From an uncultured Anaerolineaceae bacterium (GTDB taxonomy: Bacteria > Chloroflexota > Limnocylindria > Limnocylindrales > CSP1-4), in the NCBI GenBank assembly GCA_964522905.1, contig CAZFXH010000340.1:1-36730 (forward strand): 36,730 nt of DNA, written 5' to 3'. The notes beneath the pieces were generated by a model. That model did not search any database. It saw nothing but the letters and a program-made list of their open reading frames with translations, and was not told the DNA's origin. Every line of letters starts with the position of its first letter. The stretch's first letter is position 1. The translations under genes and the position numbers were made by a program. Below, piece after piece: positions 1-17,237 of this stretch.

Positions 1-2
1 CA

Positions 3-563
3 TGGGGCGCCGAATTCAAGACGGCGGTCGCCGACGCAGCCCCGGAGACCATCCGCATGCGGTTCGACGTGCAACCCGAATCGACCGTCATCGCCGTCGG
101 CGATCCGGCACCGGCATCGGATACCCCGACACTCAGCGACGTGGATGGCGACATCGCGAGGATCTCGACCGACGACGAACCTTACGAGGCCTTCTACCAG
201 ACGTCGGTCGCCGAGGCGCTCGCCGCCAGGAAGCCGTTCGTCGTGGCCTTCGCGACGCCGAAGTTCTGCCAGACCCAGCAGTGCGGGCCGACGCTCGACC
301 GGGTCAAGCCGATCGCGGCGGCCCACCCGGGCGTGACGTTCATCAACGTCGAGCCGTACCAGCTCGAGGTCGTCGATGGCCAGCTCCAGCCGGTCTTGAC
401 GGGCGAGCCACCCCAGCTGACCCCGGCCACGTCGACCGACGAGTGGCGCCTGCTCAGCGAACCGTGGGTCTTCGTCGTCGACCGCGAGGGCATCGTGACC
501 GCGTCGTTCATGCTGATCTTCAGCGGAGCGGAGCTTGAAGCGGCCGTCGCCGCCGTCGAATAG
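3..563 (+). CDS. Thioredoxin-fold (TlpA/redoxin-like) protein, probably 5'-truncated by the window edge
   Basis: The reading frame is open from nt 3 (WGAEFKTAVADAAPETIRMRFDV...), so the listed ATG at 57 may be internal. The C-terminal half has a redoxin-like core (KPFVVAFATPKFCQTQQCGP ... PWVFVVDREGIV). Stop TAG at 561-563. Strong G/C third-position bias. Confidence 0.6.
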   Translation, partial: WGAEFKTAVADAAPETIRMRFDVQPESTVIAVGDPAPASDTPTLSDVDGDIARISTDDEPYEAFYQTSVAEALAARKPFVVAFATPKFCQTQQCGPTLDRVKPIAAAHPGVTFINVEPYQLEVVDGQLQPVLTGEPPQLTPATSTDEWRLLSEPWVFVVDREGIVTASFMLIFSGAELEAAVAAVE

Positions 564-566
564 CCG

Positions 567-932
567 TCAGCCGCCGGCGTCCTCGAGCCGTACGGCGAAG
601 CGCTCGTTGCCCTCCACCCGGTAGTACACGACCACGGGCTGCGCGGTCGCCTGGTGCTCCGCCAGGTGGCCGGGCGGGAAGTCCATCCCGTTCTCGAGCT
701 CGCCGAGACGGAATTCGAGCGTTTCGCCACCAGGTCGGCGCAGGGTGAAGCCGCTCACCGCGGCGAGGCCCGAGCTATCGACCGCCACGACCACCCCCTC
801 GACCCGGGTCGTGTCGGGCGGCCCGTCGGGATCGAGCAGCGACGTGTCACTCAGCAGCAGCGCCGCGCCTCCAGTGACCGCGATGACCACGACCAGCACG
901 ACCGCGAAGAGGTTCCGCGTCCGGCGATCCAC
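567..932 (-). CDS. Small membrane-anchored protein of unknown function
   Basis: 121-aa ORF with one N-terminal TM helix (LFAVVLVVVIAVTGGAALLL) followed by a soluble domain of ~85 aa. Genome-like G/C3 bias. It starts 6 nt after the pyrE stop on the same strand, making it the last gene of the pyrK-D-E unit. No family recognised. Confidence 0.65.
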   Translation of the reverse strand: MDRRTRNLFAVVLVVVIAVTGGAALLLSDTSLLDPDGPPDTTRVEGVVVAVDSSGLAAVSGFTLRRPGGETLEFRLGELENGMDFPPGHLAEHQATAQPVVVYYRVEGNERFAVRLEDAGG

Positions 933-938
933 GCCGGG

Positions 939-1631
939 TCAGGCGCCGGCCGTGGCCCCGGCACCGGTGCTGCCGGGAGCGTAGACGGGCTCCCCGGCGG
1001 CACAGCGGGGGCACGTGGCTTCGCCCGGTTCGTAGGTCGGCAGGTCGAGCTGCCACAGCGCGCGGAGCGGGTATGTCCGGCCCGTCGCCGGTGACGTCAG
1101 GGTGGCGCGTCCACCACTGCGATCCACGAGAACGGCGCACTCGACGATCTCGCCGCCCATCGCCTCCACGGCCGGGATCATGGCGAGCAGCGAGCCACCG
1201 GTCGTGAGGATGTCGTCCACCAGCAGCACCCGCTCGCCCGGGAGGATCACGAAGCCGCGCCGGAACTCGCGTCGGGTGCCGCCGTCCGCGGCGCGGACCT
1301 CCTCAGCGAAGATGCTGCGCAGTCCGAGCTGGCGCGCGGTCTCGAAGGCGAGGATCACGCCACCGGTCGTGGGGCCGGCCACGAGGTCAACGAGCGGACC
1401 CGGGGCATCGTCGGCGCCACGCATCCGCGCCGCCCAGAACGAGCACAGCTCGCTGGTGGCAGCAGGATCGGACAGGACCGCGAACTTCTCCACGTACGCG
1501 TCGGCATGACGGCCACTCTTGAGCTGGAAGTGCCCCTCGCGGAATGCGCCCGATGCCCGGAACAGTGCCTCGGTGCGGTGCGCGATGCCGGCGCGCGCGA
1601 CCATCTCGAGCGCGGGCTTGATCGTCGTCAT
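939..1631 (-). CDS. pyrE: Orotate phosphoribosyltransferase
   Basis: PRPP-binding loop VLLVDDILTTGGS. OPRTase-like N-terminus (FQLKSGRHADAYVEKF). Sits directly downstream of pyrD. C-terminal CPRC-containing tail. Confidence 0.9.
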   Translation of the reverse strand: MTTIKPALEMVARAGIAHRTEALFRASGAFREGHFQLKSGRHADAYVEKFAVLSDPAATSELCSFWAARMRGADDAPGPLVDLVAGPTTGGVILAFETARQLGLRSIFAEEVRAADGGTRREFRRGFVILPGERVLLVDDILTTGGSLLAMIPAVEAMGGEIVECAVLVDRSGGRATLTSPATGRTYPLRALWQLDLPTYEPGEATCPRCAAGEPVYAPGSTGAGATAGA

Positions 1632-1656
1632 GCGCCCAGTCTACGTGGCAGGCCGG

Positions 1657-2700
1657 CTATGGCCGGTATTCGACGCCCTTCGCCGACGGCGATCCGGCGC
1701 GGGCCGGGAGGGCCGTGCCGACGAGGTCGAGGTGCGTCGTCACGCCCACCCGGCGGCACTCGGCCGACAGCTCATCGACCAGGCGGACCGGCAACGCGGG
1801 ATCCGCGAAGATCGCGGTGCCGACCTGGACCGCGACAGCGCCGACGGCCAGGAAGTCGAGCACATCCGCGAGCTCGGTCACGCCGCCGATCGCGACGATG
1901 GGGATCTTCACCGCCTGGGCGGCCTCGTAGACGATGCGCAGGGCCACGGGCTTGACGGCCGGGCCGCTCAGGCCGCCGTAGATGTTACCGAGCAACGGGC
2001 GCGAGCGGCCCGGCGCGACGGCGATCCCGGACAGGGTGTTGATGGCGGTCAGAGCGTCGGCGCCGGCGTCGGCGATGGCCCGGGCGATGGGCCGGATATC
2101 GGCGACGTTCGGTGACAGCTTCACGAGCAGTGGCAGGTCGGTGGCGCGCCGGACCGCGGCCGTCACCTCGCCCGCGGCCCCGGCGTCGATCGCGAACTGG
2201 AGCCCGCGCTTGCCGACGTTCGGGCACGAGATGTTGAGCTCGATGCCGGCGATCCCGGGCACGCCCTCGAGCCGGCGGGTGACCTCGACGTAATCGCTGA
2301 CCGACTCGCCGGCCACGTTCACGATGACCGGAACCTTCCAGCCGGCCCACGTCCGGGCGTACTTCTCTATCACCGCGTCGACACCCGGGTTCTGCAGGCC
2401 GATCGAGTTGAGCATGCCGCCCGGCGTCTCCGTCACACGCGGTGTCGGGTTGCCGATGCGCGGCTTGAGCGTCGTGCCCTTGCAGCAGATGGCGCCCAGC
2501 CGGTCGACGTCGACGACGTCGCCGTACTCAACGCCGTAGCCGAAGGTCCCCGACGCCACGAGGATCGGGTTCGGCAGTACGAGTCCACGCCCGAGGTCGA
2601 CCGACAGGTCGATCTCGACGTCCCGGGGAGCGACGTCGTCACCCCCCGTCGGATTCGACGCGGCCGAGGCGGGCCGAGGCTCAGACTTCGGCGGCGACAT
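1657..2700 (-). CDS. pyrD: Dihydroorotate dehydrogenase, class 1B catalytic subunit
   Basis: Motifs NPILVASGTFGYG, CCKGTTLKPRIGNPTPR, GMLNSIGLQNPG, NISCPN, VKLSPN, TAINT, GGLSGPAVKP and AIGGV. The ORF runs to 2904, but that extension overlaps pyrK in another frame. The first ATG clear of pyrK is at 2700, with an alternative ATG at 2736. Confidence 0.9.
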   Translation of the reverse strand: MSPPKSEPRPASAASNPTGGDDVAPRDVEIDLSVDLGRGLVLPNPILVASGTFGYGVEYGDVVDVDRLGAICCKGTTLKPRIGNPTPRVTETPGGMLNSIGLQNPGVDAVIEKYARTWAGWKVPVIVNVAGESVSDYVEVTRRLEGVPGIAGIELNISCPNVGKRGLQFAIDAGAAGEVTAAVRRATDLPLLVKLSPNVADIRPIARAIADAGADALTAINTLSGIAVAPGRSRPLLGNIYGGLSGPAVKPVALRIVYEAAQAVKIPIVAIGGVTELADVLDFLAVGAVAVQVGTAIFADPALPVRLVDELSAECRRVGVTTHLDLVGTALPARAGSPSAKGVEYRP

Positions 2701-2795
2701 GACCGACCGGAAGGCCGGGCGCGTTCGCCGTGGCATCGGGGCCCGGCTGGCTCCCGCCGGGCGACCGGAGGACGTGATCACCCGCCGCTTGGCCT

Positions 2796-3665
2796 TCACG
2801 ACCAGGCGCCCTCCCAGATCAGCTCCTCGCTCGCGAACACCGGCCCCTCGCGGCAGACCCGCTGCGGCACCCCGGTCGTGCTCATCACGACGCAACCGAG
2901 GCACGCGCCCACCGCACAGCCCATGTTCTGTTCCATCGACACCTGGAGGAATGCCTTGCGTCGGGCCGCCGCGGAGCCGGATGGGTCACCGCGCCCTCCA
3001 CCACGCTTCCGCCCGAGGCTCGCGACACCGAGCCGGCCCCCGCGGCCTTCCGCCTGCCGCGCGAGGGCGGCCAGCATCCCGGAGGGACCGCAAGCGAACG
3101 CCTGGTCGGCCCACGACTCGTACTGCGCCACGAGATCCGTCACGTAGCCGTGGTGGCCGAGGGAGCCGTCATCGGTCGCCACGACGTACTCGATCTCATC
3201 GGGTAGGAGGCTGGAGGGATACACCTCGCGCGAGCTCGCCGCCCCGAACAGCAGGGTCACCTGGCGCCCGTCGCGGAGGGCCTCATCTGCGAGCATCCGG
3301 ACGCCGGCAATCCCGAGGCCACCCGCCACGAGCAGCAGGTGGCGGCTACGCGGATCTACCTCGAACGGGCGGCCGAGGGGACCGAGCAGTTCGATCTCGT
3401 CACCGGCGCGGAGTCTCGTGAACCACTCGGTTCCACGTCCGATGACACGGAAGTGGATCGTGATCATGCCGGTGGTGACGTCCGCGGTATTCACCGAGAA
3501 GGGGCGGCGCAGGACCATCCCGGAAAAGTCGCCGGTCCGGATGTGGACGAACTGGCCGGCGCGCGATCCGCTGGCGATCATCGGCGCGTGGTACGCCTGG
3601 AGCCATTGCCCGGGCAGGATCTCGCGGCTCTCCATGAGCTCTGCCGCGACGAGCCGCATCGTCAC
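2796..3665 (-). CDS. pyrK: Dihydroorotate dehydrogenase electron-transfer (FAD / 2Fe-2S) subunit
   Basis: Ferredoxin-reductase-like motifs RRPFSV, GPLGRPF and LLLVAGGLGIAG. C-terminal cluster motif MGCAVGACLGCVV...VC. Located directly upstream of pyrD. Its ATG overlaps the stop of the upstream acidic-protein gene (ATGA). Confidence 0.9.
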   Translation of the reverse strand: MTMRLVAAELMESREILPGQWLQAYHAPMIASGSRAGQFVHIRTGDFSGMVLRRPFSVNTADVTTGMITIHFRVIGRGTEWFTRLRAGDEIELLGPLGRPFEVDPRSRHLLLVAGGLGIAGVRMLADEALRDGRQVTLLFGAASSREVYPSSLLPDEIEYVVATDDGSLGHHGYVTDLVAQYESWADQAFACGPSGMLAALARQAEGRGGRLGVASLGRKRGGGRGDPSGSAAARRKAFLQVSMEQNMGCAVGACLGCVVMSTTGVPQRVCREGPVFASEELIWEGAWS

Positions 3666-4669
3666 GCGGTCGGGCGATCCTCCGACTCCTTCACGACGTC
3701 CTCGACGTCTTCCACATCCTCGACGTCCTCCACATCCTCCACATCCTCAACGTCCTCAACGTCGGCGGCGGCCTCCGCATCCGTGGCGGCGGCGACCGCT
3801 CCCTCCTCGCTCGCCTCGGCGATGTCGGCGGCCGCCCCGGGATATTCGGGGGCGACGGCGGGATATGCCTCGGCGAGCGCGTCGGCAAGATCGCCGAAGA
3901 CGTCGGTGGGGTCGTAGAACTCGACGAGCTGGTCCGGTCCGGACAGCGTGCGCCAGGTGCCATCGGCTTCTTCGGGTACGACCTCGGCCCGGAACTCGCC
4001 GGTCGCGGTGAGCGTGAGCCGCTCATCGTCGTCGTCGACGATGACAAGCTCGCCGAGCAGCCCCGACGCGCTCGCGGCCGCCACCTCGAAGTCGTCCAGC
4101 AAGCGCGACTCGCTGCGCTGGCTGCGCTCCTGGTATTCGAGCGCGAGGTCGTACAGGCGCCGCGCGGCCGCCTCGTCGTCCTCGAGCACCGGCGCGTCTC
4201 CCTGACCGGCGGCCCACGAGTCGGCGGCTGCCGCGTAGGGATCCTCACCGAGGGTGATCGATTCTTCCGGCGAGATCCCAGCGGACTCGAGCAGGTCCTC
4301 GGCGGCGGTCGGGGCTTCCGCGAAGCCTGCCGCCTCCTTGGCGGCGTCGGCGAAGGCGGCATAGATGTCCGCCGGGTTGTACAGCTCGACGAGCTCGGAT
4401 GCTGATTCGATGACCTCGGTCTCACTCACCCATTCGCCGCTGGTCTCGTCCTGGAATCGGCTGCGGCTGCGGAACGAGAGGTCGGGGGCGATCGAAAGGT
4501 AATCGGGCTCCTCGTCGATGAGCGTCAGGCCGCCGTACGCCGCGAGGCGCTCCTTGTGGCGGTCGAGGAAGCGCCGGAGCTGGTCGGTGCTCTGCACGAG
4601 GAAGTCGGAACGCTCCAGGGCGGCGTCCGCCGCGATCTCCCCGAGCAGGTCGTTGCGGCCCGTATCCAT
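3662..4669 (-). CDS. Highly acidic protein with two tandem ~75-aa modules and a C-terminal (DVE)7 repeat; function unknown
   Basis: The ORF spans 3662..4726. The ATG at 4669 is preceded by GGGAGG with 6-nt spacing, whereas the ATG at 4726 lacks an SD. The protein is very Asp/Glu-rich. It has an internal duplication: LTLIDEEPDYLSIAPDLSFRSR...GEWVSETEVIESASELVELYNPADIYAAFADAAKEA versus LVIVDDDDERLTLTATGEFRAE...GTWRTLSGPDQLVEFYDPTDVFGDLADALAEA. The stop overlaps the pyrK start. Confidence 0.75.
   Translation of the reverse strand: MDTGRNDLLGEIAADAALERSDFLVQSTDQLRRFLDRHKERLAAYGGLTLIDEEPDYLSIAPDLSFRSRSRFQDETSGEWVSETEVIESASELVELYNPADIYAAFADAAKEAAGFAEAPTAAEDLLESAGISPEESITLGEDPYAAAADSWAAGQGDAPVLEDDEAAARRLYDLALEYQERSQRSESRLLDDFEVAAASASGLLGELVIVDDDDERLTLTATGEFRAEVVPEEADGTWRTLSGPDQLVEFYDPTDVFGDLADALAEAYPAVAPEYPGAAADIAEASEEGAVAAATDAEAAADVEDVEDVEDVEDVEDVEDVEDVVKESEDRPTA
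3698..3763 (-). repeat. 9-nt (3-codon) tandem repeat encoding D(VED)x7 at the C-terminus of the acidic protein
   Basis: Read directly from the DNA. Codons on the coding strand are GAC GTT GAG / GAC GTT GAG / GAT GTG GAG / GAT GTG GAG / GAC GTC GAG / GAT GTG GAA / GAC GTC GAG. The repeat is perfect at peptide level but differs at synonymous sites. Confidence 0.85.
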
Positions 4670-4747
4670 GGGTTGCCTCCCGTTCGGTTCGTCGCCAGGT
4701 GGTCGTGCGTCGCGTCGGATGCTCATGTCTCGCTCATCTTCGTCGGG

Positions 4748-5116
4748 TCAGCGATGGTATTCGAGGTCGGGGCCCATCCGCTCGCGGAGGAACATCGAAT
4801 GATGCCGTTCGAAGATCCACTCGCCGGCGCGATGGCCGAGCGCGCGAGTGCCTTCGTCGTGTTCGAGCTTGTCGAGCGTGGCGTAGTCGGGTAGCTCGAG
4901 GAGGATGACGTTGTCGAAGTCCCAGCCGTGCGCGACGTTGTACCAGCCGATGAATCGGATCCCGAAGCGCTCCTCGTAGTCCTTCACGGTGCGCGGGAAG
5001 ATGGTCCTCATGAAGAACTTGAAGAAGGGATCGCGGCCGCGGCGAACGGAGAAGTAGGTCGCGAGCACGGGCACGGGCGCTGCGGTCCTCCTGGCTGAAG
5101 CTGGGGCAACCGCCAT
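4748..5116 (-). CDS. Small alpha+beta protein; the ABM/NIPSNAP/EthD-like dimeric-barrel assignment is a guess
   Basis: The ORF spans 4748..5158 (GTG at 5158, ATG at 5116). Genome-like codon bias. Sequence FFKFFMRTIFPRTVKDYEERFGIRFIGWYNVAHGWDFDNVILLELPDYATLDKLEHDE resembles beta-alpha-beta barrel stress and antibiotic-monooxygenase-like proteins. The family assignment is tentative. Confidence 0.6.
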   Translation of the reverse strand: MAVAPASARRTAAPVPVLATYFSVRRGRDPFFKFFMRTIFPRTVKDYEERFGIRFIGWYNVAHGWDFDNVILLELPDYATLDKLEHDEGTRALGHRAGEWIFERHHSMFLRERMGPDLEYHR

Positions 5117-5188
5117 TGTCGCACGGGGCTCGGGCCGGACGTTCCCTGGCGGCACCACGTGTCGAGGCGCGCCAAGGGGCAGCCGCGC

Positions 5189-5581
5189 TCAGGCCGGGTC
5201 GTTGCTTTCCTTGTCGGGCTCCGCGGCCGCGCCCTCGTCCTCCAGCTCCCCCACGGTCTTTGTGGCACTCCCCAACGGTCGCCGCCGGCCGCGACGGTCG
5301 GCCGCCACCAGCCGAAGCAGGAAGATGATCGTCTGGCCCGTGACGAGGAGCAGCAGGAGCACCGCGAACAGCAGCGCGCCGCTCACCGCATCGGGCCACC
5401 TCCAGACGACGGTGAGCGGGGTCAGGACCAGCAGGCTGACCAGCACGATCAGCTGGAACCGGAAACAGCCGAGCCCAGGGCCCCGCTCGGCGTCGAGCTC
5501 TTCGCCCTTGTACTTGACCGGGCCCGGCTGTCGCGGCGGCCGGTCCGGAGTCGGGTCGGCGGCGGGATCGTCGTCGGTCAC
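5189..5581 (-). CDS. Small two-TM membrane protein
   Basis: This is the C-terminal part of the 292-aa ORF 5189..6067; the part above 5637 overlaps the YbaK-like gene in another frame. A GTG at 5581 gives VTDDDPAADP.... Two hydrophobic helices (FQLIVLVSLLVLTPLTVVW and ALLFAVLLLLLVTGQTIIFLL) are followed by a charged tail. Confidence 0.5.
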   Translation of the reverse strand: MTDDDPAADPTPDRPPRQPGPVKYKGEELDAERGPGLGCFRFQLIVLVSLLVLTPLTVVWRWPDAVSGALLFAVLLLLLVTGQTIIFLLRLVAADRRGRRRPLGSATKTVGELEDEGAAAEPDKESNDPA

Positions 5582-5637
5582 GAGCCGGAACGATACGGGA
5601 GGCGGCCCGAACCCGCCGGGCGGGCGCGGGCGGAGTG

Positions 5638-6162
5638 CTACGCCGTCGCCGGCTCGGTCGCCAGGCCCTCGACGACCTCGACGCGCGGCAACGCCAACAG
5701 GATCGACGGCGATGCGATCACCTTCCAGGACCTCGAGCCCCCGCCGAGCACGATGCGGTCCCGCGCCATCACGCGAGCATCGACCCACACCGGCAGCTCG
5801 GGCGGCAGGCCGAAGACGGTCACTCCACCGATCTCCATGCCGGTGATCTCGCGCGTGGACTCCGATGGCGCGAAGGACGCCTTGCGCGTCCCCAGCCGGT
5901 CGCGCACGGTCCGATTCACGTCCAGCCGGTTCGGGGCGAGCACGACGCATGCGGCATAGCGCGGTGGATCGCTCTTGCCGATGACAAGGATCGTGTTCGC
6001 CGAGTCCTCCGGAGCGAACCCGTAGGCGGCGCAGAACGCCGTCGTATCGGCGAGCGCCGGATCGCACGCGAAGAGCTCGTACTCGATATGGAGCGGCTCG
6101 AGGGCGGCGAACAGCCGCTCACGCCCGGCTGGATCGTGCGAGGGGTCGTGATCGGACGTCAC
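5638..6162 (-). CDS. YbaK/EbsC-type aminoacyl-tRNA deacylase domain protein
   Basis: Shows YbaK/ProRS-associated-domain-like sequence (ILVIGKSDPPRYAACVVLAPNRLDVN..VRDRLGTRKASFA...TGMEIGGVTVFGLP...VWVDARV...IVLGGGSRSWKV). The ORF reaches 6213, and a GTG at 6162 is an alternative start. Confidence 0.75.
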   Translation of the reverse strand: MTSDHDPSHDPAGRERLFAALEPLHIEYELFACDPALADTTAFCAAYGFAPEDSANTILVIGKSDPPRYAACVVLAPNRLDVNRTVRDRLGTRKASFAPSESTREITGMEIGGVTVFGLPPELPVWVDARVMARDRIVLGGGSRSWKVIASPSILLALPRVEVVEGLATEPATA

Positions 6163-6221
6163 GGGCCGAAGAGTACGACGCGGGACCGTCGACCGACCGC
6201 GGGCCGCTACCATCGAGCGCG

Positions 6222-7841
6222 ATGCCCGACCGCTCCACGATCCAGCACCCGACCGCGCCGCCCGACATCGATGCCTACCTCGCGCGGTTCGACTGGCACC
6301 CCGAGCCCGAGCTCATCGGATACCGCGATGAGGGCGCCTCGAGGGCCGCGCTGACCGAGCTCGGCGAGCAGACCTGGGCGGCTGCGCTGGAGTTCCTGTA
6401 CGGCACCGCGATGGTCCGGGCCATGGGCGACCCCTCGCCGTATGACGCCGCGCGCCGGCGCTATTACGGCCCGGATGCGACCGGTCCCGGGGCGGCCCCT
6501 GCCGGCCCCAGTCCGGCGGCCGCCGTCCTCGCGGAATTCTCCGATCGGCTGGCAGGCAGCCTGATGAACGCCCAGCACCCGCGCCAGTTCGGCTACTTCA
6601 CGCCGCCGCCCCTGCCCATGTCGATCATGGGCGAGCTCCTGGCGCAGGTCGCCAACCAGGGCGTCGACGTGTGGCACGCCGGCCCGTTCGCGGCCTTCGT
6701 CGAGGAGGAGGTCGTGCGCTGGCTGTGCGATCTCGTCGGGTACGGCGAGGGCTCGTTCGGGCTGCTGACCAGCGGCGGCGTCATGGCCAATTTCATGGGC
6801 ATGACCCTGGCGCGCGACATGCATCTCGGGCGGATCAGGGGGCTGGATCGCCCGCCCCGTGGAGCGGCGCTGGAAGGTGCCCGGGTCTACACGAGCGACC
6901 AGACCCACTTCTCGATCGCGCGAGCGCTCGATGAGCTCGGGTTCCCGCCCGAGACCCTGGTCGTCCTGCCCGCCGACGACGACTTCCATCTGCGCGGGGC
7001 GTCGGTCGCGGCGGCGGCCCAGCGCGACCGAGCCGCCGGCCTGACGCCGTTCGCGATCGCGGCGGTCGCGGGCTCGACGAACACGGGCTCGGTCGACTCG
7101 ATCTGGGAGCTCGCGGACGTCGCCGCGGCCGAGGACATGTGGCTCCACGTGGACGCGGCCTACGGCGGGGGTGCCCGGCTCTCGGAGCGAGACCGGGACC
7201 GCGTGCCGGACCTCGAGCGCGCCGACTCGGTCACGGTCGACCCGCACAAGTGGTTCTTCCAGGCGTACGACATCGGCGGCCTGCTGGTCCGCGACGGCCG
7301 GGCGCTCGGGGCGGTCTTCGGCGGCCGGGCCCCCGAGTACTACCGCGGCGGGGAGGCACAGGAGACCGCGGGTGACGGCCACGACCACGACGACCAGCTC
7401 AACTTCTACAAGCTCAGCTTCGAAGGCACCCGCCGCTGGCGTGCGCTCAAGCTGTGGATGACGTGGAAGCACCTCGGCACGAGCGGCTTCGGTCGGCTGA
7501 TCGAGGCGAACGATGACCTCGCCGCCCACCTCGCCGCGCGCTGCGCCGAGGCCGATGATTTCGAGGCCCTGCCCGCCGTCCCGGAACTATCGGTCGTCTG
7601 CTTCCGCCACCGGCCACCCGGGCTCCAAGGCGCCGACCTCGATGCCCATCAGGACCGGCTGCAGGCGGCCCTCGAATCCTCAGGCGATGGCTGGCTGACG
7701 ACGACCCGCCTGCGCGGCTCGACCTGGCTGCGGGCGGGGATCGTCAACTACCTCGCGACCGAAGCGGATATCGACCACCTACTCGACACGCTTCGTCGGC
7801 TCGCCATGTCCGAGCCACGATCGGGAGCCGTCCCAGGCTAG
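6222..7841 (+). CDS. Pyridoxal-phosphate-dependent (group II) amino-acid decarboxylase
   Basis: Motifs LTSGGVMANFMGMTLARD, STNTGSVD, LHVDAAYGGG and the PLP-lysine motif SVTVDPHKWFFQ.YD. The 440-aa ORF on the opposite strand (6207..7529) is an antisense artefact. Confidence 0.9.
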   Translation: MPDRSTIQHPTAPPDIDAYLARFDWHPEPELIGYRDEGASRAALTELGEQTWAAALEFLYGTAMVRAMGDPSPYDAARRRYYGPDATGPGAAPAGPSPAAAVLAEFSDRLAGSLMNAQHPRQFGYFTPPPLPMSIMGELLAQVANQGVDVWHAGPFAAFVEEEVVRWLCDLVGYGEGSFGLLTSGGVMANFMGMTLARDMHLGRIRGLDRPPRGAALEGARVYTSDQTHFSIARALDELGFPPETLVVLPADDDFHLRGASVAAAAQRDRAAGLTPFAIAAVAGSTNTGSVDSIWELADVAAAEDMWLHVDAAYGGGARLSERDRDRVPDLERADSVTVDPHKWFFQAYDIGGLLVRDGRALGAVFGGRAPEYYRGGEAQETAGDGHDHDDQLNFYKLSFEGTRRWRALKLWMTWKHLGTSGFGRLIEANDDLAAHLAARCAEADDFEALPAVPELSVVCFRHRPPGLQGADLDAHQDRLQAALESSGDGWLTTTRLRGSTWLRAGIVNYLATEADIDHLLDTLRRLAMSEPRSGAVPG

Positions 7842-9157
7842 AGCCGCGGCCGCGATCGTGCCGCCAGGCGGTCCTGCAGCCGGAACCACTCCCCGGCGAA
7901 CGGCAGGAACCACGGCCGGCCTTCGTAGGGAGCCGGCACCAGGGGAAACTTGAGGCGTGTCAACGCCGGAGATTCCCCGCCGGCCAGCCACTGCCCGACC
8001 CGCGACCCGAGGTGGGTCATCAACGCCACGCCCGTGCCGCAGCAGCCCATCGCGTACGCAACACCGTCCCCGGTCCGCCCCACGTGCGGCATCCGGTCGA
8101 AGGTGAAGCCGACGTTCCCGCCCCAGGCGTACTCGATCCGGTAGTCGGCCAGCTGCGGGTGGACCTCCAGGAGCCCGCGATGGAGGATCCGCGCCGTCTT
8201 CTCGATCGAGGTCGGGAAAAATGACGCGCGCCCGCCGAAGACCATCCGGCGGTCGGCCGAGACGTGCCAGTAGTACAGGAAGTTCTTCGTGTCGAAGAAG
8301 GCGCGGCCCTTGGGCGAGAGCTCGTGTGCGAGATCGTCGGGCAGCACCTCAGACGCGATGATGAACGAGCCGATCGGGATGATGCGGCGGCGCAGCGACG
8401 GGACGACGCCGTCCGTGTAGCCGTTGGTGGCCACGAAGACGTCCCCTGCCAGGATCTCGCCGCGCGATGTCTCGACCAGGAAACGGCCGTCCGCCTGCCG
8501 CCGGATCGACCGCGCACGAACCCCTTCGTGCAGGTCCGCGCCCGCGCGCGCCGCAGCCGCTGCCAGCCCCGCGAAGTACCGGCCGGGGTGAAGCAGGCCG
8601 CTGCCCTCGACCGCCAGCGCCCCGTAGTAGGCATCGGTGCCGATCTCCTCGCGGATCCGCTCGCGAGGCACGACGGTGGAGCTCACCCCGACCGAGGCCA
8701 GGCTCGCCCTCGCGTGCTCGAGCTCGGGAACGTGCGAGGGCGCATACGCGAGCTCGAGGTGGCCGCCCTCCCGGAAGTCGCAATCGATCGCCTCCTCGGC
8801 GATGAGTCGCTTCACGAGGTCGTACGAGTCGAGCGTCTCGCGGTAGAGGGCCTTGCCGGTCTCGTCGCCGTAGCGCTGGATCAGCTGCCGGGCGCTCCAT
8901 TTGTAGCCGGCATGCACGATACCGCCGTTACGCGTCGACGCCCCCCAGCCCAGCGTGTGCGTCTCCAGGAGCGTCACCGCGATCCCACGCCGGGCCAGCT
9001 CCCGGGCGGCGTTGATCCCCGCGTACCCGCCACCGATCACGACGACGTCCGCCGAGTCCGGGAGGTCGCGGCCGGACCGATCCGGTAGCGGCGTCATCGA
9101 GGCCTGCCAGAACGGCCGGCGCTCGTAGTCGGCGTTCAGGGAGCCTGGTGAACCCAT
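7838..9157 (-). CDS. FAD-dependent oxidoreductase (DAO / amine-oxidase-like family)
   Basis: Rossmann dinucleotide motif VVVIGGGYAGINAARELARRGIAVTLLE. C-terminal ...GCCGTGV.... The ORF extends to 9253, and the ATG at 9157 (MGSPGSLNADYERRPFWQ) is the likely start. Its stop overlaps the stop of the convergent decarboxylase within the tetranucleotide CTAG. Confidence 0.85.
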   Translation of the reverse strand: MGSPGSLNADYERRPFWQASMTPLPDRSGRDLPDSADVVVIGGGYAGINAARELARRGIAVTLLETHTLGWGASTRNGGIVHAGYKWSARQLIQRYGDETGKALYRETLDSYDLVKRLIAEEAIDCDFREGGHLELAYAPSHVPELEHARASLASVGVSSTVVPRERIREEIGTDAYYGALAVEGSGLLHPGRYFAGLAAAAARAGADLHEGVRARSIRRQADGRFLVETSRGEILAGDVFVATNGYTDGVVPSLRRRIIPIGSFIIASEVLPDDLAHELSPKGRAFFDTKNFLYYWHVSADRRMVFGGRASFFPTSIEKTARILHRGLLEVHPQLADYRIEYAWGGNVGFTFDRMPHVGRTGDGVAYAMGCCGTGVALMTHLGSRVGQWLAGGESPALTRLKFPLVPAPYEGRPWFLPFAGEWFRLQDRLAARSRPRL

Positions 9158-9339
9158 GAGGTGGAGCGTACCGGAGCGCCGCCTCGCGCGCCCCATCCCA
9201 GTTCCCGCCAAGGTTCCCATCGGACTCTCGGGCGACCGAGCGACGAGCCCCATATCAAGCGTCGTCGGTTACGATCGCCAGGGAGTGCCGGCGGATCGGC
9301 GTCTCCTGCCAGGCCTACGGTCCATCGCTTGGGGGACGC

Positions 9340-10146
9340 GTGCGCACGATCGCGGTCATCAATCGCAAAGGAGGCAGTGGCAAGACGACGACGGCCGTCA
9401 ACACGGCCGCCGCGTTGGCCGGCTTCGGACGCTCGGTCCTTTTGATCGACGTCGATCCGCAGGGCAGCGCGTCGGACTGGCTCGACCGCGAGGGGTCCGA
9501 TCGGGGACTGCGCGAAGCGTTCACCGTGACGGGCGACCTCGCTCGGCTGGCCGTCCCTACCGACACGGCGAGGCTCCAGATCGTGCCCTCGACGCATTGG
9601 CTCGTCGTCGCCGAGAAGACGATGCTGGGCGATCTCAGCGTGGGCATCTCGCGGGCCCTCCAGCGGTTGCCACCTCGCTGGGATCTCGTCATCGTCGACT
9701 GTCCGCCCTCGCTGTCGTACCTTTCGATCGGGGTGCTGATGGGCGTCCGGGAGCTGATCATCCCGGTGGAAGCTCACTCGATGGCACTCAGCGGCGCTGT
9801 CGCCGTGATCGATGAGTTGCCGGCTGTGCGATCGTTGAATCCGAGCCTCGCAGAAATCTGCCTCCTGCCATGTCGCGTGACCCGGACACGCCACGCTCGG
9901 GCGGTCATCGAGTCCCTCGAGGCCGACTATCCGGCCGAGGTCTCGAACACCCGCATCCGCGAGAGCATCAAGCTCGCGGAGGCCGCCGAAGCGCGACAAC
10001 CCATCACGGCCTTCGCACCCGACGGTGTCGGCACCAGCGACTACCGGGGCTTCGCCCGGGAGCTGCTCCAGCGTGCTCCGCTCGCCGCCCCAGCCAAGGC
10101 GCCCTGGAGGCGGTCCCCAGTTTCGTTGCTGTCGAGAGATCGATGA
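9340..10146 (+). CDS. ParA/Soj/MinD-family P-loop ATPase (orphan ParA-like)
   Basis: Deviant Walker A INRKGGSGKTTTAVN. Also LLIDVDPQGSAS and Walker B-like DLVIVDCPPS. GTG start at 9340. Its stop overlaps the downstream ATG (ATGA at 10143-10146). Confidence 0.9.
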   Translation: MRTIAVINRKGGSGKTTTAVNTAAALAGFGRSVLLIDVDPQGSASDWLDREGSDRGLREAFTVTGDLARLAVPTDTARLQIVPSTHWLVVAEKTMLGDLSVGISRALQRLPPRWDLVIVDCPPSLSYLSIGVLMGVRELIIPVEAHSMALSGAVAVIDELPAVRSLNPSLAEICLLPCRVTRTRHARAVIESLEADYPAEVSNTRIRESIKLAEAAEARQPITAFAPDGVGTSDYRGFARELLQRAPLAAPAKAPWRRSPVSLLSRDR

Positions 10147-10856
10147 CCGAGCCTCGGCCTGAACCTGCCGCGACTGCAGCTGCTGTGGAGGCGCTGGTTC
10201 GATCGATCGAGGCCAAGGAGGCTCAGGACGCTCGCCCCGGCGCGGGCGTGGAGCCGACAGCGCGCCGAGCAGGCGATGCCGAGATGCCCGCCCCTGCCGT
10301 CGTCCTCGAACCGACGCCGCGGAAGCAGGATGAGCTGACCCGCTCCTCCGACCCACCGACCTCCAGAACTCGCCGGCCCGCGGCCACCGGCTGGGCATGG
10401 TCCTCCACCAGCCGCGGACCCCTCCCTGGTCTCGTCGATCGCCAACTGTGGGAGGCGCTCGTCGCCGAAGAGGCTGAGCGTCAACACCGGTACGGGCGAC
10501 CCACCGCCGTCGTCCTGGCCGAGCTGGACGGCCTCGATGCCCTGGTCGCGCGGATGGGCCCAGCGGCCATACACCGGCTGGTGCTTCCCTGCGTCGAGAT
10601 GCTCGCGTCGCTCACGCGCAGGTCCGACCGCATGACGCGGCTGACCAACTCGCGATTTGGCCTCCTCCTGCTCGAGACCGACGCTAGCGGGGCGGCCATG
10701 CTCGCTGCAAGGATCACAGTAGCCGCCGAGAAGCGGCTGTCCGGAAGTACGTGGCCGGTGCGGCTGATGGTCGGCTGGGCTGGTGCCTCGACCAGCGAGG
10801 ATCTCCGCCACGCGGTCCGCGCCGCCGACAGACACCTCCGCACGAGGCGCGACTGA
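10143..10856 (+). CDS. Protein with a disordered N-terminal ~100 aa and a degenerate (inactive) GGDEF-like domain
   Basis: The ATG at 10143 overlaps the ParA stop. The listed ORF start at 9870 lies inside parA in another frame. The C-terminal ~130 aa align to a diguanylate-cyclase fold: RYGRPTAVVLAELDGLDALVARMGPAAIHRLVLPCVEMLASLTRRSDRMTRLTNSRFGLLLLETD...VGWAG...ADRHL. TNSRF occupies the GG(D/E)EF position. RRSD sits exactly 5 residues upstream, at the RxxD I-site position. Confidence 0.7.
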   Translation: MTEPRPEPAATAAAVEALVRSIEAKEAQDARPGAGVEPTARRAGDAEMPAPAVVLEPTPRKQDELTRSSDPPTSRTRRPAATGWAWSSTSRGPLPGLVDRQLWEALVAEEAERQHRYGRPTAVVLAELDGLDALVARMGPAAIHRLVLPCVEMLASLTRRSDRMTRLTNSRFGLLLLETDASGAAMLAARITVAAEKRLSGSTWPVRLMVGWAGASTSEDLRHAVRAADRHLRTRRD

Positions 10857-10919
10857 ACGCACTGATCGAGCAGCGAGACGCGTCCAGGCCAGATTGCTGC
10901 CCGCCCGCGGAGCCTCCGA

Positions 10920-11147
10920 CTACGGTCGCGTGCTATTGGGGTCAGCGGAAGCCGGGAGGAACCAGTCAGGCTCCGGTGGGATGACCCGATCGGCCGTCTC
11001 GCCGTTGACGACCGCGAGATGCGTGAAGAACCGGGCGCGCCGATGCGAGACGATCCGCGCGTCCTGGCAGGGGCAGCCGTGCGCGAGGCAGCCCGACGGC
11101 CGTGAGGGACCTGCTCCTGACCTTTGCCTCGTATCGCTGACGTCCAT
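10920..11147 (-). CDS. Small (75 aa) Cys-containing hypothetical protein
   Basis: The ATG at 11147 is preceded by AGGAGA. G/C3 bias is genome-like from codon ~18 onward. Sequence ...GCLAHGCPCQDARIVSHRRARFFTHLAVVNGETADRVIPPEPDWF.... The upstream part of the listed 234-aa ORF overlaps the sigma-factor gene antisense and is discounted. Confidence 0.4.
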   Translation of the reverse strand: MDVSDTRQRSGAGPSRPSGCLAHGCPCQDARIVSHRRARFFTHLAVVNGETADRVIPPEPDWFLPASADPNSTRP

Positions 11148-11457
11148 GTCCTGTCTCCTGCGCCGAGTCTGGGCTCGACCCCGGATGCCCCGGATGAAAT
11201 GTGGTCCCCTCTGGATACGTTCGGTGACGCTGCGAGGACGCATTTCGTTGCATCCGCGAGCCAAGGTGTCGGCTGGCCGACGTCCAGCAAGCGGGCCGGG
11301 TTGGCGGGCAGACTGAACCTCGCGCTGTCCGCCGGCATCAAGTGGTCGAACGCGCGGTTCCTGGAGGCAGCCGATCCCACCCGCGACCGACCGGTCGCTC
11401 GTCGACCGGGCCCGCCACGGCGACCTCGACGCGTTCGAGGAGATCGTTCGCGCCCGA

Positions 11458-11925
11458 ATGGATGCCGTGTACCGCCTCTCATTCGCGATCCTCGCCGACG
11501 AGGCGGACGCCCGCGACGCCGCCCAGGACACCTTCGTGACCGCGTGGCGGCAGATCGGGAAGCTCCGCGACCCCGAGCGCTTCGACGCGTGGCTCCAGCG
11601 CGTGGCCGTCAATGCCGCCCGCATGACCCATCGGGCGCGCCGGCGCCGGGGCGTTCGCGAGATCGCGGCCAGCCGCGTCGGCGGTGCGGCCGACTTGCCC
11701 GCGACGGCGTCGCCCGTGGAAGCCGATGCTGGGACGCTTCAGACGGCGCTTGGCCGCCTGTCGATCGAGCAGCGATCCATCCTCGCGCTGCACCATCTCG
11801 AGGGCTATCCCGTGGCCGATCTCGCGGCGATCCTCGACGTCCCGATCGGGACCGTGAAGTCGCGTCTGCACACGGCCCGTCAGGCGCTCCAAGCGGCGAT
11901 CGATGCCGAAGGACGTGCCCGTTGA
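11458..11925 (+). CDS. ECF-type RNA polymerase sigma-70 factor; coordinates run from the first canonical start and the protein probably begins further upstream
   Basis: Region 2 DAAQDTFVTAWRQIGKLRDPERFDAWLQRVAVNAA. Region 4 LSIEQRSILALHHLEGYPVADLAAILDVPIGTVKSRLHTARQAL. The same frame upstream encodes the expected N-terminus (DRSLVDRARHGDLDAFEEIVRAR) but has no ATG/GTG/TTG back to the TGA at 11314. GGAGG-N6-ATC lies at 11363-11376. Confidence 0.85.
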   Translation: MDAVYRLSFAILADEADARDAAQDTFVTAWRQIGKLRDPERFDAWLQRVAVNAARMTHRARRRRGVREIAASRVGGAADLPATASPVEADAGTLQTALGRLSIEQRSILALHHLEGYPVADLAAILDVPIGTVKSRLHTARQALQAAIDAEGRAR

Positions 11926-13463
11926 GTCCTCTAGACGAGCCAGACCGCTGGGGAGACGACCGACTCGGGATGGCGTTCGCAGCGCTCGCGAATGCCCAGC
12001 CCGTGCCGACGGACATGACTCGCCGAGTCGTCGCCGGCATCAGGGCCGGCTCACATGGCCGGATGGCCGCGGGTTGGCATCGATTCGCCCCGGTCTTGAC
12101 CACCGCAACGATCGTGGGCGTGTTCGTGATCGGCCTCGCCATGCTGGGCCCGCTCCGAACCGGTCGCGGACTCCCGGAATCGACGGACGTACCACCTTCC
12201 GCCGGGCCAAGCACCGATCGAACGCCGATGTCGTCGGCGACGCTTCCGTCCAGCATCATGGGCATGCCGATCATCGGGGTAGGTGACGCGATCGCGGCCC
12301 GCGACAACGGCGTCAACGATCGGGAACTCGCCGTTCGCGGCTGGTTCTCCCCGATCGGTCCGATGCCCTGCCCGTACACGCCAGCGATGTCCCCGGTGCA
12401 GCCGGTGTGCCCGGATGCCTGGACCGTGCTCATGGAGGAGCCCCAGTCGCTGGTCACCGTCGTCCGGGACGGGTTCGAGGGCCGCGACCCGAGCGGCCCG
12501 TCGTTCCAGATCGACCTCGACGACCTCGATCGAACCTGGGCGCCAGATCTTCCGGCAGTCGGACCCGCCATGCCGATCGAACTCGTGGTCGTCGGCCACT
12601 TCGACGACCGACGGTCATTCGCCTGCCCAGGCGAGGTGGACCTTTGTCGCGATCGGTTCGTCGTCGATCGCGTCGCCTTTGCCGATGGTAGGCCGGTGCC
12701 GACGAGCGCGCTCGATCTTGTCGATGGCGGCGCTGTATCGACGGCGGCAGAGGTGGCGGCGACGGTCAGCGAAACCGTCCGAGGCGCAGAGTTCCTGTCG
12801 ATGGTTGCGGTCGATGGCGAGCTCGGGCTGCAACGGGTCGAGCCGTCGATCGGTGTGTTCGCTCGACTGCAGGGTCAGCGGGCGATATGGGTCGTCCGGC
12901 TCCTCGACCGCTGCGTCATCCGATGCACGGCCCGCGCGGGGGCTGGCGAGTTCGGCACGTACCTCCTGGTCGATGGCACCGATACGCTTTTCAAGATCGA
13001 CGCCGACAACGTGGCGACCCAGGTGGTCGGCACGCTCCCTGTCGCGTCGCCAGTTCCGTGGCCGCCCGACGGCGCGACGGTCATCGTCCTGCGGAGTCCG
13101 GTCGGAGAGGGCCGACCGCAGCCACGCGTCGCCGTCGTCGACCTGAGCGGCCGACTGACCTCCGCGCGCGAGGTTCGGGACTCGGATCCGCCGGTCACCA
13201 TCGTCGAGGAAGGTGATCGAGCCGGTTTCGCCCGTGATCGGGAAGGAGCCTACCGGTTGCGCTGGGCCGGCGGCATCTGCGACGGTGATCTGACGGTGAC
13301 GATCGCAGCCGATCTTCGCGGGATCGTCGTCGACGGCGGGCAACAGGTCGCCTGCGATGCCATGGGGATCGGCCGCGAGCTCGTGCTCAAGTTCTCCCAG
13401 CAGGTCGATCCAGCCGATGTCGACGTCATGTACACCGAGACCCGAGTCCCGGATCCCGACTGA
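11922..13463 (+). CDS. Membrane-anchored protein coupled to the ECF sigma (putative non-ZAS anti-sigma or sensor) with a large extracytoplasmic domain
   Basis: A TTG at 11922 overlaps the sigma stop (TTGA). An alternative ATG gives MAFAAL.... A short cytoplasmic segment is followed by one TM helix (VLTTATIVGVFVIGLAMLG) and then ~430 aa with paired cysteines (PCPYTPAMSPVQPVCPD and GHFDDRRSFACPGEVDLCRDRFVVDRV). The 5' 800 nt of the listed 779-aa ORF overlap other genes and are discounted. Confidence 0.7.
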   Translation: MSPLDEPDRWGDDRLGMAFAALANAQPVPTDMTRRVVAGIRAGSHGRMAAGWHRFAPVLTTATIVGVFVIGLAMLGPLRTGRGLPESTDVPPSAGPSTDRTPMSSATLPSSIMGMPIIGVGDAIAARDNGVNDRELAVRGWFSPIGPMPCPYTPAMSPVQPVCPDAWTVLMEEPQSLVTVVRDGFEGRDPSGPSFQIDLDDLDRTWAPDLPAVGPAMPIELVVVGHFDDRRSFACPGEVDLCRDRFVVDRVAFADGRPVPTSALDLVDGGAVSTAAEVAATVSETVRGAEFLSMVAVDGELGLQRVEPSIGVFARLQGQRAIWVVRLLDRCVIRCTARAGAGEFGTYLLVDGTDTLFKIDADNVATQVVGTLPVASPVPWPPDGATVIVLRSPVGEGRPQPRVAVVDLSGRLTSAREVRDSDPPVTIVEEGDRAGFARDREGAYRLRWAGGICDGDLTVTIAADLRGIVVDGGQQVACDAMGIGRELVLKFSQQVDPADVDVMYTETRVPDPD

Positions 13464-13466
13464 CGT

Positions 13467-14848
13467 TCAGTCTATCGGCGCCTCGTACGCGACCCGACCG
13501 TCGGCCATCGTCAGCAAGACCCGGCCCGGAAGGTCCATCCCGAGCAGCGGCGAATTCTTGCCGCGGGACGCGAGCGCCTCCGCCGAGACGGTCCAGCGCT
13601 CCGACCGATCGAACACGACGAGGTCCGCCGGCGCCCCTTCGACGAGGCCTACCGAGCCGTTGCGACGCGCCCGTGGGCCAAGCACCGCGGCCGGACCGAC
13701 GGTTAAGGCCGCGAGCGCCCGCGCCAGAGTCAGATGGCCCGAGTCGACCGCCTCGAGCACGAGCCCGAGCGCCGTCTCGATGCCGCTGATCCCGTTCGCG
13801 GCCATGCCGAACTCGACCGCCTTGTCGACCTCCGTGTGGGGTGCGTGGTCCGTCGCGATCGCGTCGGCCGTGCCGTCGGCAAGGGCGGCCAGGCAGGCCA
13901 TGACGTCGGCCGGTGTCCGGAGCGGCGGGTTCACGCGAAGCGATGACGCGTACGGCGCCGCCACCAATGCCCCGTCCCGCCACGGATCACCGTCCTCGCC
14001 GGCCTCCCACGCGAAACGGCGAGCGCCCGCGACCCACTCGTCGGTCAGTGCGAGGTGATGTGGCGTCACGTCGCAGGTGACGGGCAGGCCAGCCGCCTTG
14101 GCGCGGCGCACGAGCTCCAATGCCGCCGCCGTGGATACATGGGTCAGATGCAGTCGCGCTCCCGGGACGTCCCGCACGACGTCGGCGAGGATCGCCAGGT
14201 CCCGACCGACCGCCGCCTCCTCCGCTGCGACCGGCCACCCGCGCAGTCCCAGGACGGTCGCGACGAACCCGTCGTTCGCCTCGGCGCCGTCGGTGAGGGT
14301 CGCATCCTCGGGGTGGTCCACGATCGGCAGCCCGAGCGCGCCCGCGTAGGCGAGCGCGTTGCGCAGGATCGATGCGGAGCGGACCGGCGCACCGTCGTCG
14401 GAGAACCCCACGACGCCTGCGTCCGCGAGCTCGCCGAGTGCTGCGAGCGTCTCGCCGGCCCGTCCGGTCGACACCGCCCCGTAAGCCAGCAGCTCCACGG
14501 GCGAACCGGAGGCTGCAGCCGCCGCCCGGATCCCGGACAGCACGGCAGGTTCGTCGAGCGTCGGCGTCGTGTTCGGCATCGCGCAGACGGTCGTGAAGCC
14601 GCCGCGGGCGGCCGCCGCGAGTCCCGACGCCACGGTCTCGGCATCCTCGTTGCCGGGTTCGCGCAGGTGGATATGGAGATCGATGAACCCGGGCGCCACG
14701 ACGACACCACCAGCGTCGATGCCGTCGGCCTCCTCGCGTTCGAGCCATGTCACGGCCTCGAGGATCCCGTCCCGGACGACGATCTCACCGGGCCCTTCGC
14801 GCCCCGCGGCCGGATCCACCATCCAGGCGCGCCCGATGTCGAGGTCGG

Positions 14849-14852
<4 letters not shown>
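13467..14852 (-). CDS. pyrC: Dihydroorotase
   Basis: Metal-binding motif PGFIDLHIHLREPG. Also ...TCDVTPHHL... and ...IATDHAPH.... The ATG overlaps the pyrB stop (ATGA). Confidence 0.9.
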
Positions 14853-16615
<1,763 letters not shown>

Positions 16616-17173
16616 TCAGTAGACGTAGACCGTGACGTCCACCACCCCGCTCCACCACGGGCAGCCGCAGATGTCGAAGAAGTCCGGACGGTACAGGTCC
16701 ACGATCCGGGACGGCTTCTGCGGTCCGTAATCGTTCACCACGCGCTCGATGCAGCCGCCGCCACCGCAGATGATCACGATCGTGCCGCGGGGCAGGCGCA
16801 TCGCCGTGGTGCCGTTGTCGTAGAACGTGGCCTCGCCGCGGAGGGTGTATTTGGGTGGCTTGCGGCTCGAGCGCGAGTCGGGGGTGGGCTGCTGGACACG
16901 GGCCCGTGCCGAGGGCCCGGACTCGGGCGCTTCACCCGGCTCGATGAAGGGCGCTGCCTCGTGGACGAAGCCCGCCGACAGGAAGCCACCGTCGAGCCCC
17001 GCGATCGACAGGGCGGACGACGGATCAGACGCGGGGACCGGGAGCGACTGGAACGCGACGGCCGGTACGGGCTCCATGGCGTACGGGACGCGGGAGCCTG
17101 CGAGACCCGGCAGCGCGGCCAGGGCGAGGGCGGCAGTGAGCACCGACCCCACGACCAACCATCTGGGTCGCAC
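16616..17173 (-). CDS. RlpA-like double-psi beta-barrel (DPBB) secreted protein
   Basis: C-terminal DPBB-like core GEATFYDNGTTAMRLPRGTIVIICGGGGCIERVVNDYGPQKPSRIVDLYRPDFFDI. A GTG at 17173 gives a signal-peptide-like N-terminus (VRPRWLVVGSVLTAALALAALPGLAG). The ORF extension to 17293 overlaps the upstream gene. Confidence 0.75.
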   Translation of the reverse strand: MRPRWLVVGSVLTAALALAALPGLAGSRVPYAMEPVPAVAFQSLPVPASDPSSALSIAGLDGGFLSAGFVHEAAPFIEPGEAPESGPSARARVQQPTPDSRSSRKPPKYTLRGEATFYDNGTTAMRLPRGTIVIICGGGGCIERVVNDYGPQKPSRIVDLYRPDFFDICGCPWWSGVVDVTVYVY

Positions 17174-17237
17174 GATAGGCGGGGAACGATACGACGATAT
17201 GGGCCCGTTTGCACGCCCGCCGTGTCGGCGGGGGATC

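Follow-up and report, generated by a model that had tools for sequence, protein, structure and literature searches.

Few bacterial pathways are mapped as well as pyrimidine de novo synthesis, so conserved genes of unknown function inside a pyrimidine (pyr) operon are unexpected. A contig of 36,730 nucleotides (nt) from an uncultured Anaerolineaceae bacterium (CAZFXH010000340.1, assembly GCA_964522905.1; class Limnocylindria of the Chloroflexota), referred to below in its full length as the window, carries such a gene. It encodes a highly acidic, internally repeated protein and is followed by pyrK, pyrD and pyrE, all on one strand and tightly packed, as a first-pass annotation of the window had noted. 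What does this protein do among the pyrimidine genes? We found that its gene is always the third of three, after a gene for a protein with two transmembrane (TM) segments and a gene for a 108-amino-acid (aa) protein, and that this trio, specific to Limnocylindria, has held its place beside a pyr gene across at least four rearrangements of the operon. Tentatively, and with somewhat less than even confidence, we read the acidic protein as a non-enzymatic adaptor or scaffold linked to pyrimidine synthesis and co-expressed, within the trio, with the pyrimidine enzymes. Families are labeled f1 (the window's own), f2 (a streamlined sister family), f4 (in another order) and f3 and f5 (both without the trio).

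A conserved gene for a modular acidic protein

The maximal open reading frame (ORF), 3662-4726 on the minus strand, is intact and encodes 354 aa counted from its first ATG (4726). Both starts implied by the earlier estimate of about 335 to 354 aa are present, and the shorter product is favored. A GGGAGG Shine-Dalgarno (SD) sequence lies 6 nt upstream of the second ATG at 4669, and in the alignment every full-length homologue begins with MDTGRNDL while none has the extension encoded at 4670-4726; translation therefore most likely starts at 4669 and yields 335 aa. Long spurious ORFs are common in high-GC genomes, several overlap this very locus, and the frame might have stood open by chance without being a gene. 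We give that explanation practically no weight, as it is refuted by the GC content at codon positions 1, 2 and 3 (0.77, 0.45 and 0.85, with similar values in pyrK, pyrD and pyrE), by purifying selection (ratio of nonsynonymous to synonymous substitutions, dN/dS, of 0.23 for the whole gene; all dN/dS values are pairwise among five orthologues), by thousands of homologues and by a confident fold prediction. A word-indexed search returned at least 3929 homologous clusters at E<=1e-3, every one named hypothetical; the named clusters bear the labels Chloroflexota or Candidatus Limnocylindrales. The gene was found in 39 of 41 relatives and in all 15 of the high-quality genomes. Judged from sequence, the ORF is a genuine, strongly conserved gene, and its product is a cytoplasmic protein.

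The richness in Asp and Glu reported in the first-pass annotation was borne out by computation. Glu makes up 13.6% and Asp 12.4% of the residues (26% together) and Ala 16.9%; there is no Cys and a single His. The computed isoelectric point (pI) is about 4 and the net charge -67, and the charge per residue is the most negative among the 1583 ORFs in the 2.49-Mb assembly that are likely to be coding and have 150 aa or more. An acidic linker (aa 116-164) and a (DVE)7 tract (residues 303-323) are both where they had been described, the tract being encoded by four different 9-nt codon sets.

An internal duplication had also been proposed, and the two halves of the protein do match each other (BLASTP E=3e-8, 31% identity across 87 aa), with homologues carrying one, two or three modules. 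The proposed unit of about 75 aa was too short. The repeat spans about 110 aa (residues 3-113 and 165-268) and comprises a helix of about 35 residues that precedes the strands, then a short helix, a meander of four strands and a closing pair of helices. These limits come from an AlphaFold2 (AF2) model built from 23 homologues, in which both modules are predicted with high values of the local distance difference test (pLDDT; Table 1), the linker is for the most part of low confidence, and tail residues 276-332 fall below 50. Module 1 can be aligned with module 2 and with single-module orthologues. The acidic linker contains a patch, DPYAAAADSW, that is conserved in the homologue alignment.

The modules are under purifying selection by their substitution ratios, and the tail appears to evolve nearly neutrally (Table 1). 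Among f1 relatives the tail varies from 10 to 73 aa, about 39% of it Asp or Glu, and just 8 of 106 close homologues have a (DVE)n tract. Its tip is conserved: RPTA is the C-terminus in 93 of the 106. The codons of the terminal AE[GD]RPTA vary synonymously (CGC/CGT/CGA, GCG/GCT), which indicates that the peptide is kept at the protein level and not as a ribosome-binding signal for pyrK. Columns conserved across the module family are mostly hydrophobic or helix-capping, for example in the E-x-Y-[DN]-P-x-D turn. Together with the absence of conserved Cys, His, Ser and Lys, this argues against catalysis, and the protein shows no sign of enzymatic function.

No pyrimidine enzyme had been recognized in the protein at first pass, and wider searches agree. 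Pfam-A, NCBIfam, PADLOC and PHROGs gave no family match at or close to curated thresholds for the full protein, single modules, orthologues or paralogues, and a profile of the module family found nothing among Protein Data Bank (PDB) sequences at E<=10. Structural matches were called at Foldseek E<0.001 and a template modeling score (TM-score) above 0.5. With the whole two-module model as query, the best match had E=0.5 in the PDB and E=2e-3 in BFVD, the latter at TM-scores of 0.14-0.19. An exhaustive search of 1.84 billion representatives gave 348 clusters at 50% identity, many of them fragments or frameshift chimeras. The family and the fold are thus new in the sense that they have no detectable relatives; no new mechanism is demonstrated. 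The chimeras among the public proteins (P0131, P0137, P0158, P0163, P0189 and P0214) contain Arg/Pro-rich out-of-frame stretches, and some are fusions to pyrK. They probably reflect assembly errors in GC-rich metagenomes, and they inflate the apparent diversity of the module family.

A trio of genes kept beside pyrimidine genes

Limnocylindria are uncultivated bacteria abundant in soil and freshwater, with four main families: P2-11E, QHBO01 and CSP1-4, with genomes of 2.4-3.2 Mb, and Limnocylindraceae, with genomes of about 1.3 Mb (PMC13212565). When the neighborhoods were compared across related genomes, homologues of the acidic gene proved to be consistently linked to pyr genes. In f2 the order is pyrR-pyrB-pyrC-TM-108aa-module-pyrK-pyrD-pyrE, with genes that overlap or are spaced by 1-7 nt, and in f4 it is pyrR-pyrB-pyrC-TM-108aa-module-pyrE. 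The f3 and f5 operons, which have no trio, read pyrC-carA-PhzF-like-carB-pyrK-pyrD; the trio in its three families thus occupies the place of carA-carB. Among 80 f1 species loci the module gene is followed by pyrK in 78 of the 78 with a downstream flank, and a ybaK-type gene lies upstream in most. A few f1 species retain an unsplit pyrR-B-C-trio-K-D-E operon. In the window, pyrR-pyrB-pyrC lie at about 13.5-16.5 kb, some 8 kb from the trio, and the ybaK-type gene forms the border of the intervening block, which divides the f1 operon in two.

Four changes have thus left the trio next to a pyr gene: the relocation of carAB, the loss of pyrK-pyrD from the f4 operon, the loss of pyrB-pyrC from the operon of one f2 genome, and, in f1, the insertion of some 8 kb that parted pyrC from the trio. 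The position directly before pyrK, which the first-pass annotation had considered fixed, holds in f1 and f2 alone and not across the class, since f4 keeps its two-module orthologue directly before pyrE. The acidic gene and pyrK had been described as joined by an ATGA. The tight spacing is real, and the overlap is not: the junction reads ...GCG TGA CG ATG, with the pyrK ATG 2 nt past the stop codon. This ATG is conserved in relatives, and a GTG that overlaps the stop codon in the window (GTGA) is lost in them.

Since the trio lies inside an operon with pyrR upstream in two families, it is probably made there together with the de novo enzymes under pyrR-linked control. In the window, the gene order suggests that the acidic protein is probably made at least together with pyrK-pyrD-pyrE. 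Rfam detected no PyrR element in window 1-18000, the region upstream of pyrR itself included, and a scan of 800-6400 for promoters and terminators gave no sites in this GC-rich genome.

The protein itself differs from family to family. The f1 orthologues have two modules, the acidic linker and the acidic tail. Those of f4 have about 275 aa, two modules and a net charge of -35 to -44; they lack a long tail, and their conserved C-terminus reads ...RYPAVDFSAVY[DE]. In f2, whose genomes measure 1.0-1.4 Mb, the orthologues have 152-179 aa, a single module and a Lys/Arg-rich N-terminus; of four that were read, three have a pI of about 10.9 and the fourth 4.9. These differences mark the module as the conserved entity, and the extreme acidity and the tail as lineage-specific additions.

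Stand-alone paralogues with two to three tandem modules were also seen (L032:8001-9050, L033:8001-8993, L031:3712-4941 and L030:1055-2389). They repeat module type 2, and their N-terminus is basic and disordered, with a PNTLRDQAxPNV motif; P0132, P0135, P0156 and P0186 are relatives with two to three repeats of this type. Housekeeping genes on the L032 and L033 contigs are 62-86% identical to those of the window's genome, so at least these two copies, on long contigs that stem from its close relatives, are paralogues within the same lineage. The window's own assembly contains no stand-alone module paralogue.

Independence from PyrK and competing explanations

A trio that takes the place of carA-carB could have been a substitute for a missing pathway enzyme. 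This was ruled out, as pyrF, carB and pyrD are all present: pyrF, for orotidine 5'-monophosphate decarboxylase, occurs in 195 of the 201 genomes of the class, carB lies elsewhere in trio-bearing genomes, and pyrD is found in all genomes tested. No pyrimidine enzyme is thus lacking where the trio occurs, and no gap calls for the trio.

The proximity to pyrK had pointed to the flavoprotein subunit of dihydroorotate dehydrogenase (DHODH), and this specific tie did not hold. None of seven f4 genomes contains a PyrK orthologue; just FNR-like matches of 30-36% identity were seen, far from pyrD. DHODH was typed in one of them (G125), where it is a quinone-dependent class-2 enzyme encoded off the pyr operon (L120:1818-2873; NF003652, 339 bits against a cut-off of 267). 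The enzyme of f1, f2 and f3 is of class 1B, which indicates that the DHODH type switched within one bacterial class. A PyrK-specific partner as the general function is ruled out by f4, which keeps the module protein without PyrK; PyrK and PyrD do not co-occur in every genome that has it.

An accessory subunit or assembly chaperone dedicated to the class 1B enzyme, held in a fixed ratio to PyrK and PyrD by translational coupling, could still act as a PyrK-directed role confined to f1, which we find quite improbable. Coupling is suggested by the spacing, since just 2 nt separate the stop codon from the pyrK ATG and no SD is found closer than about 17 nt. The adjacency to pyrK in every f1 locus with a flank, and in f2, fits as well, and so does a conserved Arg/Gly-rich basic segment in f1 PyrK, opposite in charge to the tail. 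This segment precedes the 2Fe-2S cysteines (window 2952-3110, minus strand; residues about 185-240), has 53 aa between ACGP and MEQNMGC, about 19 more than in f3, and carries a net charge of +8 to +11 at a length that is invariant in 61 species. Insert and tail occur together in f1; in f2 the insert is shorter and less basic and the tail is missing, and both are missing in f3. As this co-occurrence amounts to one evolutionary event, it is a lead only. The general form of the proposal is contradicted by f4, with its class-2 enzyme and no PyrK, and f3 has PyrK-PyrD without a module protein. For Fe-S or flavin handling the protein offers no Cys and one His, and three of the four f2 orthologues are basic. 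The established class 1B DHODH is a heterotetramer, PyrD2-PyrK2, and is not known to contain a third subunit. Compared with the pyrK-pyrD operons of Lactococcus and Bacillus, the acidic gene is directly upstream and tightly spaced in f1 and f2; the difference is that the module protein persists in genomes without PyrK.

The first-pass annotation had treated extreme charge as the defining property, and the charge rather than the fold could be what matters: the protein might be a nucleic-acid mimic or anti-restriction-like decoy, a buffer for Ca, Mg or Fe, or an entropic-bristle solubiliser. It is the most acidic ORF of its assembly, its linker and tail are disordered and rich in Asp and Glu, and f1 and f4 orthologues are both acidic (-35 to -67). 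We nevertheless give such a polyanion a very slight chance. Selection acts on the structured modules while the tail is nearly neutral, and the basic f2 orthologues and the rarity of the DVE tract weaken the ideas of a nucleic-acid mimic and a metal-binding tail. The DNA mimics Ocr and ArdA share the very high negative charge density; they differ in that neither structure (Foldseek against PDB and BFVD) nor sequence gave a match to them, PADLOC and PHROGs included, and in that the acidic gene sits in a housekeeping operon, in a pyr context in all lineages and with no mobile element, its charge not conserved across orthologues.

The third explanation to be weighed is a hitch-hiker, that is, a trio whose function is unrelated to pyrimidine synthesis (envelope, stress or general protein handling, for example), inserted once where carA-carB had left and retained by inertia in a tightly packed operon that is costly to disrupt. 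We consider this possible, if rather unlikely. In its favor, the distribution is what a single origin within one clade of one class would give, the pathway lacks no step, paralogues exist beyond the pyr loci, and no PyrR RNA element was detected beside the trio, though none was detected before pyrR either. Against it, the linkage outlasted at least four independent rearrangements with the trio never off a pyr gene's side, and the overlaps and the 2-nt spacers are conserved. Nothing speaks more strongly than this persistence for a functional tie between trio and pathway.

The adaptor or scaffold that we favor has its limits too. The strongest arguments against a functional tie are the single origin, the lack of any gap in the pathway and the occurrence of paralogues away from pyr loci. 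The trio-bearing families descend from a single ancestor, so their synteny could be inheritance and not selection, and the range is narrow: within the phylum, the module and the 108-aa protein are confined to three families of one class. Neighbors of the stand-alone paralogues include major facilitator superfamily (MFS) transporter genes, in two cases, SnoaL-like genes and further genes of unrelated kinds, which shows that the module has no exclusive tie to pyrimidine metabolism. Families also differ in acidity, tail and number of modules. Within f1, the charge of the PyrK insert and that of the tail do not co-vary (Spearman 0.21, p=0.11), because the insert is invariant. Further, the model of the acidic protein has a predicted TM-score (pTM) of 0.36, so the placement of the modules relative to each other is not predicted and no packing between them can be relied on.

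For the adaptor or scaffold we infer the following mode of action, partners and role of the tail. The modules would be protein-binding or dimerising units: an orthologue with one module would pair with itself into a homodimer, and two modules in one chain would form an internal pseudo-dimer. The acidic tail would be a tethered docking peptide, and the whole would connect the trio partners, the pyrimidine enzymes or both. In f1, the tail, together with the close coupling to pyrK, may have brought an additional electrostatic contact with the Arg/Gly-rich insert of PyrK. A docking role is suggested by analogy with the C-terminal tail of bacterial single-stranded DNA-binding protein (SSB), which is likewise of variable length, disordered (here pLDDT below 50), rich in Asp and Glu and closed by a short conserved tip, here RPTA with its synonymously varying codons. 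This comparison concerns how the tail may work and nothing else; the acidic protein has neither an oligonucleotide-binding (OB) fold nor sequence similarity to SSB (Foldseek matches to SSB at E of about 1), and its acidic tail is confined to f1.

A bolder proposal, which we hold to be improbable, makes the trio a membrane-anchored complex that would be a component of pyrimidine synthesis not recognized in bacteria before, with the acidic protein recruiting pathway enzymes. Such a complex might be a scaffold gathering the de novo enzymes at the membrane, a regulator sensing a small molecule, or a cofactor-independent enzyme step carried out by the barrel protein described below. If the trio does act on the pathway, it would be an unrecognised layer in the organisation or control of nucleotide synthesis; if it does not, it would be a clean case of long-term operon hitch-hiking.

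Partner proteins, neighboring genes and related operons

Between f1 and f2 the 108-aa protein shows 81-82% identity, while PyrK of the same two families shows about 36%. Its AF2 model has the topology b-a-a-b-b-a-a-b at moderate confidence (pLDDT 74) and gives 51 Foldseek matches in the PDB at E<=0.001, the best at E=9e-6 and a TM-score of about 0.65. The best matches are dimeric alpha+beta barrels of the NIPSNAP, ABM, EthD, LsrG and OAC type; those to the NIPSNAP, ABM and EthD barrels (5ixu, 5k9f, 1vqy and 2ftr) range over E 9e-6 to 3e-4 and TM-scores of 0.61-0.65. The resemblance is one of fold and not of sequence family, as no Pfam model, including NIPSNAP, ABM and GYD, matches the sequence. 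A GYD-domain protein was also tried and rejected: the GYD model finds another gene in the genome and not the 108-aa gene, even at E<=10, and the predicted fold and GYD belong to the same broad alpha+beta-barrel class. NIPSNAP/ABM-like barrels are frequent among cofactor-free enzymes. The function of the trio may center on the 108-aa protein. Many of its polar residues are invariant (H81, E85, H92, R97, E98, R99 and D103).

The two-TM gene opens the trio in all three trio-bearing families. Its product has no family match and carries a conserved GPGLGCF before the first TM segment and FLLRLVAADRRGRR after the second.

Table 1. Features of the acidic gene and its surroundings in the window.
Feature	Position	Strand	Description and basis
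pyrE, orotate phosphoribosyltransferase	939..1631	-	TIGR01367, 155 bits, above cut-off
pyrD, class 1B catalytic subunit	1657..2904	-	NF005574, 378 bits, above cut-off; maximal ORF
pyrK, DHODH B electron-transfer subunit	2796..3659	-	Pfam and NCBIfam; DHODB Fe-S and FNR-like domains
Acidic two-module protein gene	3662..4669	-	335 aa plus TGA stop at 3662-3664; ORF, SD, homologue N-termini
Conserved terminal peptide SEDRPTA	3665-3685	-	End of the acidic tail
Disordered acidic C-terminal tail, aa 276-335	3665..3844	-	Contains (DVE)7 at 3701-3763; dN/dS 0.66
Module 2, aa 165-275	3845..4177	-	Helix 165-205, four strands 208-243, helices 245-251 and 254-268; AF2 pLDDT 78-92; dN/dS 0.15
Acidic linker, aa 116-164	4178..4324	-	Block pLDDT 45-65, two short predicted helices; dN/dS 0.22
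Module 1, aa 1-115	4325..4669	-	Helix 3-37, helix 39-45, four strands 48-87, helices 90-96 and 99-113; AF2 pLDDT 78-88; dN/dS 0.12
Leader, first in-frame ATG (4726) to likely start	4670..4726	-	GGGAGG Shine-Dalgarno at 4676-4681
108-aa protein, second trio gene	4748..5074	-	Predicted ferredoxin-like dimeric alpha+beta-barrel fold
Two-TM membrane protein, first trio gene, about 130 aa	5189..5581	-	tblastn synteny, alignment; start codon inferred
YbaK/aminoacyl-tRNA-editing-domain gene	5638-6213	-	Directly upstream of the trio in at least 51 of 80 f1 loci

The true start of pyrD is probably further downstream than that of the maximal ORF listed in Table 1. In f2, the PyrK proteins (L013:6376-7218 and L014:6379-7230) have degenerate flavin and NAD motifs, with RRPFS replaced by RRVAPV and LLLVAGGxGIAP by LLIVTDVEGFPW, and retain the 2Fe-2S cysteines. 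By these motifs, f2 PyrK may have lost the usual mode of FAD or NAD binding.

A gene between pyrC and the carbamoyl-phosphate synthetase genes also occurs elsewhere. The pyr operon of Mycobacterium tuberculosis, Rv1379-Rv1385, has Rv1382 between pyrC and carA (PMC2724278). This actinobacterial operon likewise is led by pyrR and holds a gene of unknown function after pyrC; the two were compared by operon position alone, and Limnocylindria differ in having three genes that replace carA-carB rather than precede it. Rv1382 is a protein that we take to be a small membrane protein. In the operon of a trio-less family, the gene between carA and carB encodes a PhzF-like isomerase (L027:15714-16556, minus strand).

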